Origin: a virus
Lineage: Duplodnaviria > Heunggongvirae > Uroviricota > Caudoviricetes
Length of the DNA: 19,354 nucleotides
IMG/VR virus record: IMGVR_UViG_2537561977_000019
Span: 1 to 19,354 of that record
Strand: one strand, 5' to 3'
Of this stretch, positions 7,355-19,354 are shown in pieces. Every line of letters starts with the position of its first letter. Within the stretch, counting starts at the first letter, position 1. The notes beneath the pieces are model-generated. The model was not told the origin of the DNA, ran no database searches, and saw only the letters and a list, made by a program, of their open reading frames with translations. A program made the translations under genes and the position numbers.

Positions 7355-8173
7355 TCACCCCCTGAATCCTGCCGGGATCTGGCTGTAGTCCACGTTGTCG
7401 TAACTGGCTTTGAAGTACGGGTCCTCGCGTCTGGCTGCAGATACCGCAGGAACTTCCCAGGATTCTTCGAAATGACGATCCGGACCAAAGAACGTGACAG
7501 CCTGTTTCACAAATTGTGTGCCGCTGTTACCCATCGCAGATACCCAGCCCGCGTAGCGTTTCACACCTTCCAGCATGGTTTCGGGGTTTACCCCCTCATT
7601 CAAACGGGCTTTCCAGGCTTTGAAGGCTGCAGATTTTGAATTGCCACCAGCACGTTTGGGATAGGCCAGCCATGCCTGCTCAAACTCCGGAGAGTATTCC
7701 GGTCGGTTTGAACTAACTCGCACAGACTCATCAGCAGATGCACCAACAGCTATTGGTTCATTGACTGGTTCTTTGACTGGTTCAAAAGAGTGACTGGTTC
7801 TGGGTGAATCTCCTGCACTACCCCCTAGTGCAACTCCTGCACTACCTGGTGAATTTGCTGCACCAGATAGTGAATTATTTGCACTACCCCCTAGTGAATC
7901 TCCTGCACCATCCAGATGAAGGAGATAGATATTACTTGAGTTACCTTTTTCACCTTTCCGGGTGACTTTTTTTACCAGCCCGGACTCACAAAGGGCCGCA
8001 ATATGATTCATCACAGAACGTTTGCTAATCTCGCACTGGTCAGCAATATGCTGGTAGCTGGGCCAGCACTCACCCTGATCGCTGGCATTATCAGCCAGCT
8101 TGATCAGAACCAGTTTTCGCAATGGATTACCCACTCGAATTTTCATCGCTTTAACCATCAGCTCCATACTCAT
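7355..8173 (-). CDS. Replication initiator, O-like (N-terminal winged-helix, Gly/Ser/Ala-rich linker)
   Basis: N-terminus LRKLVLIKLADNASDQGECWPSYQHIADQCEISKRSVMNHIAALCESGLVKK resembles phage replication-initiator HTH domains. The linker is encoded by repetitive DNA, as iterons are in lambda O. ATG at 8173 in an ATGA overlap. Confidence 0.65.
   Translation of the reverse strand: MSMELMVKAMKIRVGNPLRKLVLIKLADNASDQGECWPSYQHIADQCEISKRSVMNHIAALCESGLVKKVTRKGEKGNSSNIYLLHLDGAGDSLGGSANNSLSGAANSPGSAGVALGGSAGDSPRTSHSFEPVKEPVNEPIAVGASADESVRVSSNRPEYSPEFEQAWLAYPKRAGGNSKSAAFKAWKARLNEGVNPETMLEGVKRYAGWVSAMGNSGTQFVKQAVTFFGPDRHFEESWEVPAVSAARREDPYFKASYDNVDYSQIPAGFRG
7761..7910. repeat. Iteron-like direct repeat cluster inside the O-like gene (candidate origin)
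   Basis: TGACTGGTTC occurs three times (7762-7771, 7774-7783, 7791-7800); GTGAATCTCCTGCAC twice (7804-7818, 7894-7908); TGCACTACCCCCTAGTG twice (7814-7830, 7880-7896); CTCCTGCACTACC also at 7835-7847. Confidence 0.5.
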
Positions 8174-10427: not shown

Positions 10428-10533
10428 ACCTTTCTCCTCTGAAATTCAGAGGGATAATGCTACTTAAAATAGCAAAATGCAACTACTTAAAATAGAAATG
10501 ACTAGCGTATGTGATGTGAGTAATCTTCTACCT
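10428..10533. promoter_or_regulatory. Immunity-region operator/promoter interval (OR with divergent pR and pRM)
   Basis: 106-bp interval between divergent cro-like and cI-like starts. Contains two exact 13-bp direct repeats CTACTTAAAATAG (10460-10472, 10483-10495). Minus strand carries TTGCAT-17-CATTAT as a pR-like element. Confidence 0.5.
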
Positions 10534-11238
10534 ATGGTAGAAGAACAGAAGTATCCAGATTTCGCCAAGAGACTAAACGAGCTAATGACAAACAAGGGAA
10601 TTTCTGTCACCCAACTCAAAAGTCTTGTGGGCGTTACATATGAAATGGCGCGGCGATACACAATCGGCGCTGCGAAGCCTCGTGCCTCTGTCATGAATAA
10701 ACTTGCATTGGCTCTGGGGGTATCAGCTTCATATTTAGAATATGGTGTTGGCGAGAGAGAAGGATGTAAGGAAATGACAAGCATCCCCAATCCAACAAAA
10801 CCCGATGTATACAGGATAGAAGTTTTGGATCTTAGCGTTAGCGCAGGACCTGGGACCTATATGCTTTCAGACTATGTTGATGTGCTCTACGCCATTGAGT
10901 TCACAACAGAACATGCCCGTTCTCTTTTCGGCAACCGTTCTCAGGATGATATTAAGGTTATGACTGTAAATGGCGATAGTATGTCCCCTACTCTCGTTTC
11001 CGGAGACCGACTGTTTGTCGACATTTCTGTTCGTCACTTCCAGACTGATGGAGTTTACTCTTTCGTTTACGGTAAGACTTTTCATGTCAAACGTCTTCAA
11101 ATGCAAGGTGACAAGCTAGCCGTTCTTTCGGATAACCCCGCCTATGAGAAATGGTATATCGATGAAAAATCGCAGGATCAGCTTTATGTAATGGGCAAGG
11201 CGTTGATTCACGAATCTATAAAATACAACCGATTGTAA
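10534..11238 (+). CDS. CI-like prophage repressor (HTH plus S24 LexA-like peptidase domain)
   Basis: N-terminal HTH (FAKRLNELMTNKGISVTQLKSLVG) and C-terminal S24 motifs (VNGDSMSPTL ... GDRLFVD ... KRL). Start is uncertain: in-frame ATGs at 10477, 10498 and 10534, none with an SD, consistent with a leaderless pRM transcript. Confidence 0.8.
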   Translation: MVEEQKYPDFAKRLNELMTNKGISVTQLKSLVGVTYEMARRYTIGAAKPRASVMNKLALALGVSASYLEYGVGEREGCKEMTSIPNPTKPDVYRIEVLDLSVSAGPGTYMLSDYVDVLYAIEFTTEHARSLFGNRSQDDIKVMTVNGDSMSPTLVSGDRLFVDISVRHFQTDGVYSFVYGKTFHVKRLQMQGDKLAVLSDNPAYEKWYIDEKSQDQLYVMGKALIHESIKYNRL

Positions 11239-11282
11239 AACTCAATCCTTTCAGGATTAAAAGATCTAAAAGGATAATAATA

Positions 11283-11690
11283 ATGAAATCTGAACTATTT
11301 CATAACGAAGCAAATTCAGAAATTATCACCGCAGATGAGTTTATTGATTTCATAAACTCTTTCAAAAAGCCTTTAATTTGCCAAATTTGCGGAAATCAAT
11401 CATGGAGTGTAGTCGGTACTCTAGAACTTGAAGTTGAAGACAATCAGCCAAAACATCACGTAATCGAAGTTCTCAGCTATGCCCAATACAAACCTGAAAC
11501 TGATAGCGCTATAAATTATCCTGGTGGTATGCCGCTGTTTCGAATCACCTGTGATCACTGTGCACATGTACTTCTTTTTTCTTATAAAAAAGCTAGATCA
11601 TTGATCCAAAAAAGAAAAATGAAAAAGAAGAGGATGGGAAATGACGCGACCTTATCTCAGAGCAGTACCAAACTGTGGATCTGGTATTGA
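11283..11690 (+). CDS. Hypothetical Zn-ribbon protein (135 aa) in an AT-rich cassette co-oriented with cI
   Basis: ATG at 11283 with an AAGGA SD, 45 nt after the cI stop. Two CxxC pairs (CQICGN and CDHC) and a basic C-terminus. AT-rich composition by eye. Confidence 0.55.
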   Translation: MKSELFHNEANSEIITADEFIDFINSFKKPLICQICGNQSWSVVGTLELEVEDNQPKHHVIEVLSYAQYKPETDSAINYPGGMPLFRITCDHCAHVLLFSYKKARSLIQKRKMKKKRMGNDATLSQSSTKLWIWY

Positions 11691-12273
11691 TAAGTGTGAC
11701 CTTTACCCCAATGTTAAGAACAGGCTGCGCGTCGGTATAGAAGAAATGTATACTGATTTTATCGAATCCGCAGATGAAACTTACAAAACTGATGGGGGAA
11801 ATAAAATGTCATCAGTTAGTCGAGAAGAAATTCAAGCACTTTTAGCTGCCAATAAAGCAGAAATGGAGTCCATTGCATCCTCTATTAGAGTTGAAATGGC
11901 TTTATCTCGCGAGAACACAAACGTTCAGCTAGCATCTCTAAATTCAGCCATCAATTCTATCTCTTCGAAAATCGAAGGCAAAATGGACAGTGTTGACGGG
12001 GATGTGAAGGCCATCAATGGTAGATTCGAAGGTATACAAGGCCAAATTACTGGAATAAATACAGCCATTAGTGGTATTCAATCTGGAATTTCTACCAGAC
12101 TTGCTATTTTTGGAGTTATCATTGCGGTCATAGTTGCATTACCTAGCATAATTTCTGCTTTTAAAGATACTTCGCCAGTAGTTCAACCAGTTACACAACA
12201 ACCAAGTGTTAAACATCTCAACCAAGAACCAATTACTCCACAAGTATTACCTCCGCAGGGAAAAGCAAACTAA
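11641..12273 (+). CDS. Hypothetical coiled-coil protein with a single C-terminal transmembrane helix
   Basis: Two candidate starts, each with a good SD: 11641 (GAGGA, overlaps the previous ORF by 50 nt) and 11806 (GGGGGA). Heptad-like Ser/Ile/Gly repeats, then LAIFGVIIAVIVALPSIISAF and a Pro/Gln-rich tail. Confidence 0.55.
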   Translation: MTRPYLRAVPNCGSGIDKCDLYPNVKNRLRVGIEEMYTDFIESADETYKTDGGNKMSSVSREEIQALLAANKAEMESIASSIRVEMALSRENTNVQLASLNSAINSISSKIEGKMDSVDGDVKAINGRFEGIQGQITGINTAISGIQSGISTRLAIFGVIIAVIVALPSIISAFKDTSPVVQPVTQQPSVKHLNQEPITPQVLPPQGKAN

Positions 12274-12297
12274 ACCGGCTTTATGCCGGTTTTTTTC
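12274..12297 (+). terminator. Intrinsic terminator ending the cI-linked cassette
   Basis: Stem ACCGGC (12274-12279) / GCCGGT (12285-12290), loop TTTAT, followed by TTTTTTC. Confidence 0.75.
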
Positions 12298-12399
12298 TAT
12301 ACAAACGCCCCCTCTTTGTCTTGAATCACATCACAACACATTTAAAAAACATTTTAAATTCAAAGCATTAAACGCATCAACGCATATCAAACAAATTAT

Positions 12400-12448
12400 C
12401 TACTTTTAGTTGTTGATTTTTGCTACTTTTGGTAGCAGAATTATTTTA
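12400..12448 (+). promoter_or_regulatory. Candidate pL/OL: plus-strand promoter overlapping operator-like sites
   Basis: TTGCTA (12420-12425), 16-nt spacer, TATTTT (12442-12447). Overlaps CTACTTTTGGTAG (12423-12435) and sits next to CTACTTTTAG (12400-12409), both sharing the CTACTT...TAG ends of the OR repeats. Confidence 0.4.
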
Positions 12449-12520
12449 ACGACAACGAACAGGCAGGACGCCCACGAAGTAGCCGCCTGGGGCATATGAA
12501 GTCCAGGATGATTCGTTAGC

Positions 12521-18053: not shown

Positions 18054-18326
18054 ATGAACACCTTGTTTTTACTGATGGCTGAATTCAATACCCCTAACAT
18101 TGAACTCTCAGCAGTTAGCCAAAAGTACTTTGGCATGAGTCCAGCCACGGCAGAAGCAAAAGCAAACGCTTGTAAGTTGCCCGTTCCAACATATCGCATC
18201 GGCACATCACAAAAAGCAAAACGTTGCATCAATATTCAGGATCTTGCGGAATACATAGACAAAAGGCGAGAAGAAGGGCGTGCTGAGTGGGAAAGGGTCA
18301 GAACCCATAAACAAAGGCTCATTTAA
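18054..18326 (+). CDS. PrtN/excisionase-like small DNA-binding protein
   Basis: Pattern SQKYFGMSPATAEAKANACKLPVPTYRIGTSQKAKRCINIQDLAEYIDKRR; ATG 18054 with a GGAGAAA SD. Last gene of the plus-strand operon. Confidence 0.55.
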   Translation: MNTLFLLMAEFNTPNIELSAVSQKYFGMSPATAEAKANACKLPVPTYRIGTSQKAKRCINIQDLAEYIDKRREEGRAEWERVRTHKQRLI

Positions 18327-18335
18327 ATAGAATAT

Positions 18336-18365
18336 GAATAAACCCATCCAAAGATGGGTTTATTC
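18336..18365. terminator. Bidirectional terminator hairpin between convergent genes
   Basis: 13-bp perfect arms GAATAAACCCATC (18336-18348) / GATGGGTTTATTC (18353-18365) with loop CAAA, AT-rich on both flanks. Confidence 0.55.
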
Positions 18366-18821
18366 ATAATGTTGAAGAGCAGCGAGTATCAGTTTTTTAT
18401 GCCGTTTAACCATAGTTTTAGATATCTCAACTGCACATCGAACTTGTCTCATACAATGATCTGTAATGCGACCTTTTAGCACGTCACCATATTGGATGGC
18501 TATTTTCTCTTTAATAATTTCAAGATCGAAAGCAGCATGAGCCTCAATGCAATTAACAAATGAGTCCCATTTAAGAAAATCATGGTCCTCTCTATTAATT
18601 TCGACCTGACAAGCCATAAGATCATTGTTTCTCTTAATAAATTCATTTATATCTGAATTTATTAGAAGAACTAAAAGAGGTTCACAGCAAACAACCACCA
18701 TATATTTTACTTTAGGTGGGGTCGTAAAATCACAATGAAGATACAATACATCACCGGGTGATATACCTCTTTCACGACTAAAATTAGCCTTAAAATCAGG
18801 AGGGAAACAATCACCCAGCAT
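18360..18821 (-). CDS. Hypothetical protein (about 153 aa), coupled partner of the Panacea-like gene
   Basis: AT-rich ORF starting 5 nt after the upstream stop (ATG 18821; a TTG at 18830 overlaps the stop). Cys/His-containing; no family recognised. Confidence 0.5.
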   Translation of the reverse strand: MLGDCFPPDFKANFSRERGISPGDVLYLHCDFTTPPKVKYMVVVCCEPLLVLLINSDINEFIKRNNDLMACQVEINREDHDFLKWDSFVNCIEAHAAFDLEIIKEKIAIQYGDVLKGRITDHCMRQVRCAVEISKTMVKRHKKLILAALQHYE

Positions 18822-18826
18822 AAGTA

Positions 18827-19354
18827 TCAATATCCGTTCTTCAGATAATCCAGTATTAATTTGCTATTTTTTAGCTGTGCAACTATCGATTCCAAAGACA
18901 TCTCACCATTGTGATCTGCCTGTTCCCATGCCGCGTCATGGCTCATGGTTCTGATAGCTTCAAAGGACATGTTTCCAAGCATCGCGATAGACTTATCAAT
19001 ACACTCTAAATCTGAGTCACTAAAAAAGTCTTCATCAGCTTCACGGCTCGGCACAATCGTCATACCTGATACAGAAAATGCTTTTCGCACAGAATCGACA
19101 TCACAATCATTAGGAATGTAACGTCCATCTCCACGAGCAATTTTTATAATATCGTATGTGTTGCTTGCTACAGGCCCATCCTTCATAGCGTTATAGTGAT
19201 CGCCCGTTATGAGGCGTCCAAAACTTTCAAGGTGAAACCTGTCAGCATAATAAAGAATTTTTCCGACATGATAGATATCTGGGATCGGTGCTTTAGAGGC
19301 GACGTACAGAATGGCCTCTAAAGCCTTTTCTGAATCAAACCTTACATTTAGCAT
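18827..19354 (-). CDS. Panacea-domain (DUF4065)-like protein; start codon sits at the window edge
   Basis: KILYYADRFHLESFGRLITGDHYNAMKDGPVASNTYDIIK and the later SHDAAWEQA fit the DUF4065 pattern. The ATG is at 19352-19354 and its upstream region is outside the window. Confidence 0.55.
   Translation of the reverse strand: MLNVRFDSEKALEAILYVASKAPIPDIYHVGKILYYADRFHLESFGRLITGDHYNAMKDGPVASNTYDIIKIARGDGRYIPNDCDVDSVRKAFSVSGMTIVPSREADEDFFSDSDLECIDKSIAMLGNMSFEAIRTMSHDAAWEQADHNGEMSLESIVAQLKNSKLILDYLKNGY

Follow-up and report, generated by a model that had tools for sequence, protein, structure and literature searches.

A two-gene operon at the end of the window

The window (the whole 19,354-nt stretch of DNA analysed here) ends in two genes on the minus strand, panA (ORF A) and panT (ORF B), whose coordinates are collected in Table 1 together with the neighbouring features. 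The initial annotation had described them as a tight operon with a 5-nt gap, lying on an AT-rich segment convergent with the genes to the left, and we found coordinates, strand and composition (36% GC) to be as claimed. GC content is 0.36 at 18501-19000 vs about 0.48-0.51 across the preceding 2 kb. The plus-strand genes that face the pair finish with a 3'-5' exonuclease gene and a PrtN-like gene ending at 18326, which shares its hairpin terminator with panT.

Table 1. Features of the panA-panT locus, in window coordinates.
Feature	Coordinates	Strand	Description
panA (ORF A)	18827-19354	minus	Panacea (DUF4065) antitoxin (predicted), 175 aa; its ATG begins at the last base of the window
Spacer between panA stop and panT ATG	18822-18826	minus	5 nt; read directly from the sequence
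panT (ORF B)	18360-18821	minus	153 aa, predicted toxin with MazF/PemK fold, Kurata cluster T5; WP_000900143.1, annotated 'hypothetical protein'
Hairpin terminator	18333-18368	none	From terminator scan; 8004-8039 in locus L001; overlaps the panT stop codon
In-window part of exchangeable cassette	18316-19354	none	Cassette of terminator, panT, panA and promoter; about 1.17 kb in whole

RefSeq annotates ORF A as a 'Panacea domain-containing protein' of 189 or 193 aa that starts 14-18 codons beyond the window. Judging from the sequence, 19354 is probably the true panA start codon, since homologues begin with MLNVRF or MLKRRF and an AAGGG stands 7 nt before this ATG. For panT, an alternative TTG start at 18830 would give a protein of 156 aa. 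The spacer between the two genes contains no strong Shine-Dalgarno sequence, which makes translational coupling likely; in homologous loci the spacing ranges from an overlap to a few nt.

The initial annotation had proposed looking beyond 19354 for a promoter and neighbouring genes. In the E. coli locus L001, a promoter-like TTGACC-18-TAAGAT is present at 9121-9092, about 70-95 nt upstream of the window end and still inside the exchangeable cassette. We found no repeats and no operator-like inverted repeats upstream of panA, and an Rfam scan of the region found no family.

ORF A is a single-domain Panacea protein

ORF A had been called DUF4065-like from its sequence, and a profile search bore this out: it matches Pfam PF13274 (SocA_Panacea) over residues 32-143 with an E-value of 2.2e-20 and 74.1 bits, against a cut-off of 25.7. 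All 83 homologues that we collected from databases carry PF13274; they are mostly 175-180 aa long, with most within 172-180 aa. Those from Rahnella, from an integrase island and from Serratia phage OS31 are 172-180 aa and start with MLNVRF or a similar sequence. An AlphaFold2 model of PanA (pLDDT 95.3) forms one compact domain, in which the residues past the Pfam boundary are well ordered and include helices at 154-158 and 164-172. According to this model, PanA consists of a single Panacea domain; it has neither a DNA-binding nor any other extra domain at the N-terminus, and lacks a disordered tail like that of MazE. It has no match among the defence-system models of PADLOC-DB 2.0. Ernits et al., 2023 (PMC10440598) showed that neutralisation can reside in the Panacea core itself or, in other PanAs, in elements attached to it. 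As PanA has neither an extra N-terminal domain nor a disordered tail, we suggest by analogy that it neutralises its partner by direct binding through the globular domain.

ORF B is predicted to be a divergent MazF-like protein

The initial annotation could place ORF B in no recognised family, and library searches agree. Pfam and NCBIfam gave no match, while PADLOC-DB 2.0 (PDC-M02B, E 0.017, 12 bits) and PHROGs (E 0.009) gave only noise. A word-indexed search returned 41 clusters of full-length relatives at 42-99% identity, all of them unnamed, in Enterobacterales and a few other Gammaproteobacteria. Their alignment, used in an exhaustive HMMER search, found 1249 cluster representatives at E<=0.001 (626 at E<=1e-10), a lower bound counted in clusters of 50% identity. 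Among the best 150 of these 1249 representatives, nearly all are about 150 aa long, and for ten distant members of the family we found only metagenomic proteins without a name. Despite its more than 1000 clusters, the family is covered by no protein-family library. The exact ORF B sequence occurs on at least 1000 contigs, and an E. coli frameshift allele that lacks residues 107-153 occurs on 82.

Across 98 diverse relatives, K39 and S87 are the only invariant residues, and at least 90% of the sequences share G23, F32, N55, S56, F82, L83 and C91. The description of ORF B as a Cys/His-containing protein was right insofar as these residues are present, but they form no conserved motif: the histidines and most of the cysteines are unconserved in these 98 relatives, and we rejected a Cys/His metal-binding or catalytic site.

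An AlphaFold2 model built from a 33-sequence alignment (mean pLDDT 89.7, pTM 0.82) shows the SH3-like β-barrel of the MazF/CcdB fold (MazF/PemK/Kid). The ten best structural matches of this model are all RNases, and so are the members of the next group, CptN, AbiQ and ToxN. Foldseek searches were much less sensitive: the top two matches among viral proteins were named 'Endoribonuclease' (prob 1.00) and 'PemK-like protein', and the PDB gave a single weak match to MazF (prob 0.87, E 0.3).

Sequence comparisons pointed faintly in the same direction. With the family HMM, S. aureus MazF and B. subtilis EndoA ranked 1 and 3 against 2000 shuffled controls at marginal scores of 8.0 and 7.5 bits, in a register that places cQVEl..ydFLdhDS of the family against tHVEI..Y.LDkDS of MazF/EndoA. 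Smith-Waterman comparison gave z-scores of 3.2-3.9 and matched the helix at residues 121-133 to the C-terminal helix of MazF. None of the 98 diverse family members matched the Pfam PemK/MazF models (PF02452) at E<=1, the family profile matched no PDB sequence, and hhalign against a four-sequence MazF profile, which was probably too shallow, was not significant in local or global mode (Prob 2.4%). K39 lies at the start of β2 in the model and N55-S56 at the end of β3; the mapping of K39 and S56 to the MazF Arg and Thr is by strand register only, and pairwise alignments of the N-terminal half disagree among themselves. Altogether, ORF B is probably a very divergent MazF-like toxin that cuts RNA.

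The initial annotation had also suggested that the partner of the Panacea protein could be a new toxin domain. This suggestion fails, both on the MazF/PemK/Kid fold and on a published catalogue: a survey of all DUF4065 gene neighbourhoods has sorted the predicted toxins into 88 clusters (Kurata et al., 2022; PNAS 119:e2102212119; PMC8832971), and its Dataset S1 lists WP_054475897.1 of Photorhabdus heterorhabditis as a T5 toxin in the order A|T with 3-nt spacing. One ORF B relative in our set (P0033) is 53% identical to ORF B over the whole length (E 9e-51), and its 90% identity cluster contains WP_054475897.1. By this homology, ORF B is a member of predicted PanT cluster T5. The T5 representative matches EndoA/MazF by HHpred at 99.5% (Kurata et al., 2022). 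The E. coli accessions of our pair are not among the entries in those parts of the supplements of Kurata et al., 2022 and Ernits et al., 2023 that were accessible.

panT adjoins panA at every locus found and decays while panA stays intact

To place ORF B relatives in their genomic neighbourhoods, we scanned one genome per species, which yielded 22 loci from Photorhabdus, Proteus, Serratia, Atlantibacter, Idiomarina, Marinimicrobium, Thiotrichaceae, Acidobacteriota, candidate division WS1 and others. A PanA homologue lies directly upstream in all 22, on the same strand and abutting or overlapping the ORF B homologue. The same architecture is found in Idiomarina, the integrase island, the Rahnella P2-like prophage and Serratia phage OS31 (loci L003-L008 and L034). 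The two proteins diverge at similar rates: identity to the Rahnella pair is 56% for PanA and 60% for PanT, and to the Idiomarina pair 41% and 42-43%. The E. coli pair combines a Panacea domain above the gathering score, a tight operon and reciprocal adjacency of putative toxin and PanA, three of the features that mark PanATs (Kurata et al., 2022).

The two genes do not decay alike. In 5 of the 22 loci (L020, L025, L027, L030, L033) panT is truncated or split, at differing points, and PanA is full length in four of these five; all five are from Photorhabdus, so the events are not fully independent. An intact panT beside a broken panA was not found among the 22 loci. Broken panT beside intact panA, and never the reverse, is what would be expected if ORF B were the toxin.

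The pair occupies an exchangeable slot at the end of a prophage

Among 5426 complete E. coli genomes, 46 contain a 1025-base sequence spanning the pair at >=95% identity, in every case on the chromosome; a search of the phage collection at the DNA level did not find it. In the RefSeq annotation of two such genomes, the pair forms the last two genes of a prophage with early genes of the yfdP/yfdQ/yfdR type. It is flanked on one side by the PrtN-family gene and on the other by a 105-nt 5' fragment of a tRNA-dihydrouridine synthase gene (L001 9220-9324), which we take from the annotation to be dusA. Beyond this fragment, the extended sequence continues with a DUF2713 gene, zur, yjbJ, dinF and lexA. 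This arrangement suggests to us that a lambdoid (CPS-53/yfdPQR-like) E. coli prophage has inserted itself into dusA at its 5' end, with the pair as its final cargo cassette.

Many related prophages match the window only to about 18304-18315. When L001 was compared with the sister prophage C311 (L009), similarity ended at L001 7986 (window 18315) and resumed at L001 9159, which puts the right end of the cassette about 134 nt beyond the window, leaving about 60 nt between it and the displaced 5' piece of dusA. These break and resume points imply that about 1.17 kb, from the terminator through both genes to the promoter, is exchanged in one piece. In C311 the slot holds PanA WP_000287252.1 with a 182-aa protein, a cassette present in 79 genomes. 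Other alleles encode a 179-aa unknown protein with a YafO-family toxin (49 genomes), a third PanA (WP_000458584.1) with unknown proteins of 128 and 57 aa, and, in O157:H7, unknown proteins of 177 and 57 aa. The flanking PrtN-like gene occurs in 741 genomes, of which these alleles cover a minority. The attachment-proximal slot of dusA prophages is therefore an exchange site for PanA-toxin and other toxin-antitoxin cassettes.

Beyond the attachment-proximal end of the E. coli prophage, the panAT module was found in three further kinds of mobile-element position. In Rahnella a P2-like prophage carries it between gpA, the replication gene, and the portal gene, where it adjoins a gene with an AbiJ domain; in a metagenomic island it adjoins an integrase and a ParE/HTH pair; and in the sequenced temperate Serratia phage vB_SspS_OS31 it lies between the Q antiterminator and the methylase/lysis genes. 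It was absent from a collection of 72,556 plasmids. The unbroken linkage in 22 loci, these three other contexts and the toxin-antitoxin cassettes in the same slot of sister prophages together support the original proposal of a toxin-antitoxin or defence pair.

A working model and its alternatives

We think it likely that the locus is a PanA-PanT toxin-antitoxin operon in which PanT is an endoribonuclease of the MazF fold, held inactive by direct binding of PanA. In this model, panA and panT would be transcribed together from the promoter just inside the attachment site, with translation of panT coupled to that of panA. PanA would bind PanT directly via its globular domain, which amounts to type II neutralisation. 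Free PanT would act as a sequence-specific endoribonuclease that arrests translation, and its invariant K39 and near-invariant N55-S56 would stand where MazF has its catalytic Arg and Thr. The initial annotation had left open which gene encodes the toxin. We assign this role to ORF B with reasonable confidence, on four grounds: the fold of its product, an order that puts the antitoxin gene first, decay in relatives that strikes B but never A alone, and a T5 member that proved toxic in E. coli. That member, from Chryseobacterium bovis, is the only one tested; since its cognate PanA was itself toxic (Kurata et al., 2022; PMC8832971), the T5 cluster does not yet include a validated toxin-antitoxin pair. 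As for the pay-off to its carrier, the context leads us to speculate that it is most likely prophage stabilisation, exclusion of other phages, or both.

An alternative that builds on this model is that the pair serves primarily in abortive infection or exclusion: PanA would sense a protein of the invader, or be degraded, and so free the RNase and protect the host. We regard this as a serious possibility that falls short of probable. The module always sits at cargo positions of temperate phages and is missing from the plasmids searched, its slot carries swappable toxin-antitoxin cassettes in sister prophages, and a sensory role has been proposed for Panacea (Ernits et al., 2023; PMC10440598). 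However, a cargo position fits addiction or stabilisation equally well, neither protein matches a PADLOC model, and the literature examined contains no phage-challenge results for any pair of a PanA with a MazF-like toxin. It would be more surprising if ORF B were toxic by another route, with its MazF/CcdB fold aimed at a target such as DNA gyrase, as in CcdB. The structural neighbours described above, down to CptN, AbiQ and ToxN, are all RNases, the sequence register agrees with the Gram-positive MazF/EndoA, and the MazF-like PanTs validated so far are specific inhibitors of translation (Kurata et al., 2022; PMC8832971); we consider this reading unlikely.

It is also conceivable that the module has no activity or toxicity in E. 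coli, being a remnant in decay or a pair with some role other than toxin-antitoxin, in which case ORF B would be a harmless accessory protein. Eight of the 25 PanTs tested in E. coli were non-toxic (Kurata et al., 2022; PMC8832971), a frameshift allele circulates on 82 contigs, and there are decayed toxin genes in Photorhabdus. We nevertheless give this explanation little credence, because ORF B in the window is full length and its exact sequence is widespread (at least 1000 contigs), because uniform length and invariant residues in a family with 1249 representatives indicate purifying selection, and because decay of the toxin alone is what a real toxin predicts. Finally, neutralisation could proceed as in SocAB (type VI), with PanA delivering the toxin to ClpXP for proteolysis instead of blocking it by binding, given that Panacea was first described in SocA and that NCBI names some homologues 'SocA family protein'. 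We find this highly improbable: ORF A scores 17.9 bits with the NCBIfam SocA equivalog NF047745, whose cut-off is 190, the toxin is MazF-like rather than SocB-like, and the five PanAT pairs tested, one of them MazF-like, gave stable complexes of the sort seen in type II systems (Kurata et al., 2022; PMC8832971). We therefore retain the model of a type II PanA-PanT operon with a MazF-fold toxin.

Implications

The pair is a new, predicted member of an already catalogued type of toxin-antitoxin system, and ORF B is not a new toxin fold. The analysis gives a probable function to a 'hypothetical protein' gene of E. coli, Salmonella and many other bacteria, and the ORF B family, with more than 1000 clusters and no entry in the libraries, merits a model of its own. 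Because the cassette at the attachment end of dusA prophages is polymorphic, nature supplies prophages that are isogenic-like apart from the toxin-antitoxin cassette, and this set could separate phage exclusion by PanAT from mere prophage stabilisation.

A bolder picture can be drawn, which we offer as speculation and rather doubt will hold as a whole. In it, T5 would be an unrecognised branch of the MazF superfamily, with at least 1249 clusters (at 50% identity), no Pfam model, constant linkage to PanA, extra helices, and a Lys at the catalytic Arg position. Temperate phages would use T5 as an interchangeable exclusion cassette, and the 1.2-kb attachment slot at E. coli dusA would be a dedicated swap site for PanA-toxin pairs, with PanA as the sensor of the invading phage.

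Comparison with known systems

The closest known systems are the T5 PanATs of Kurata et al., 2022, which share the toxin family, the PanA-first order and the short spacing with our pair. Among the other clusters with MazF-like PanTs, the pairs from P. moraviensis (T6) and Bifidobacterium ruminantium (T25) are validated: the toxin inhibits translation, PanA rescues, and the PanA-PanT complex has been demonstrated for P. moraviensis T6, while the MazF-like PanT of cluster T8 was non-toxic (Kurata et al., 2022; PMC8832971). The T6 and T25 pairs resemble ours in combining a Panacea antitoxin with a MazF/PemK-fold toxin that conserved-domain searches miss, but they belong to other sequence clusters.

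MazEF, PemIK and Kid-Kis differ from the pair in their antitoxin, which here is a Panacea protein and not an AbrB-type MazE or a PemI. Compared with the toxins of these systems, ORF B has no PF02452 match, a much shorter β1-β2 loop, a Lys where the catalytic Arg would be expected, and about 40 extra residues that make up an N-terminal helix and added C-terminal helices.

The validated, membrane-depolarising PanAT of E. coli STEC O31 has a PanA that is only distantly related to ORF A (one significant BLAST match, 33% identity over 40 residues). Its PanT, 182 aa long, is unrelated to ORF B and has hydrophobic stretches towards the C-terminus that resemble transmembrane helices. WP_000287252.1, the PanA of the C311 cassette, is the accession of the validated E. 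coli PanA in Table 1 of Kurata et al., 2022 (PMC8832971). In sister dusA prophages, this validated pair thus fills exactly the slot that panA-panT fills here, with the PrtN-like gene on one side and the dusA fragment on the other.

The panA-panT pair occupies an exchangeable position

We compared the slot that carries the Panacea antitoxin gene panA and the predicted MazF/PemK-fold toxin gene panT, the att-proximal cargo position of this dusA-integrated prophage, with its equivalents in sister prophages. The slot is bounded by the PrtN-like gene and the displaced dusA fragment, and at least five alternative cassettes occupy it in these prophages. The PrtN-like gene that flanks the slot is present in 741 of 5426 genomes, so the cassettes counted represent a minority of the slot alleles. 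The exchangeable cassette includes the hairpin that overlaps the panT stop codon; this hairpin probably terminates transcription in both directions.

Features and cassettes of the slot and repressor region (L numbers denote loci from other genomes; L009 is the sister prophage of strain C311; other positions are those of the window)
Feature	Position	Content	Genomes
cI-like repressor	10477-11238	HTH + Peptidase_S24	
Hairpin, 16-bp stem	18333-18368	AATAAACCCATC...GATGGGTTTATT; between convergent PrtN-like gene and panT	
Slot cassettes, all coordinates	window 18316-19354 and beyond; L009 22921-24252; L010 1207-2197; L035 3844-4747; L036 3844-5045		
Slot cassette		PanA + MazF-like pair of the window	46
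Slot cassette		validated PanA(Esc. col.) + putative membrane toxin	79
Slot cassette		unknown 179-aa protein + YafO toxin	49
Slot cassette		third PanA + two unknown proteins (128 aa, 57 aa)	
Slot cassette, O157:H7		two unknown proteins (177 aa, 57 aa)	

The same pair was found in a further phage, a further prophage and an integrase island. The sequenced temperate Serratia phage vB_SspS_OS31 (MT843276) carries it at L034 2944-3974, with a Q antiterminator on one side and methylase/lysis genes on the other; its PanA and toxin are 49% and 46% identical to those of the window, and both genes are annotated as hypothetical. In a P2-like prophage of Rahnella aceris (CP002505; L007 3471-5688) the pair sits between gpA and the portal gene. 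The gene immediately after it has an AbiJ N-terminal domain, and the region resembles a site for defence cargo. A metagenomic integrase island (L004/L005 2120-4471) has the pair immediately downstream of a ParE-toxin/HTH_3 pair, stacking two TA-like modules next to the integrase.

The panA start codon and broken toxin genes

The RefSeq start of the Panacea gene lies 14 or 18 codons 5' of window position 19354 (189 or 193 aa; 9025-9079 of L001, the E. coli locus containing the right end of the window). Homologues from several genera and one phage start at the position equivalent to the ATG at 19354, and AAGGG lies 7 nt upstream of this ATG. The N-terminal extension in the RefSeq annotation is probably an error.

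Natural disruptions of the toxin gene were also recovered. P0197, recorded on 82 E. coli contigs, is a frameshift allele of 112 aa ending in ...EIIKEKNSHPIW; the change affects residue 106 onward (window about 18360-18503) and removes the C-terminal helices, and the product may be an inactivated toxin. The gene is truncated or split, at differing break points, in five Photorhabdus loci (L020, L025, L027, L030 and L033). Four of these loci retain a full-length PanA gene upstream, and L030 has both genes truncated. An intact toxin beside a broken PanA was seen in none of 22 loci.

A second AT-rich stretch downstream of the repressor

The window has a second AT-rich stretch at 11000-12500 (GC 0.38-0.39), immediately downstream of the gene for the cI-like repressor. 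Its ORF 11283-11690 (135 aa) had no family match, and ORF 11641-12273 (210 aa) was assigned to no family, with only sub-threshold matches to two baculovirus protein families. Strain C311 has a ParA-family gene downstream of its repressor gene. By position, the two ORFs of the window resemble repressor-operon cargo, of which rexAB is an example.
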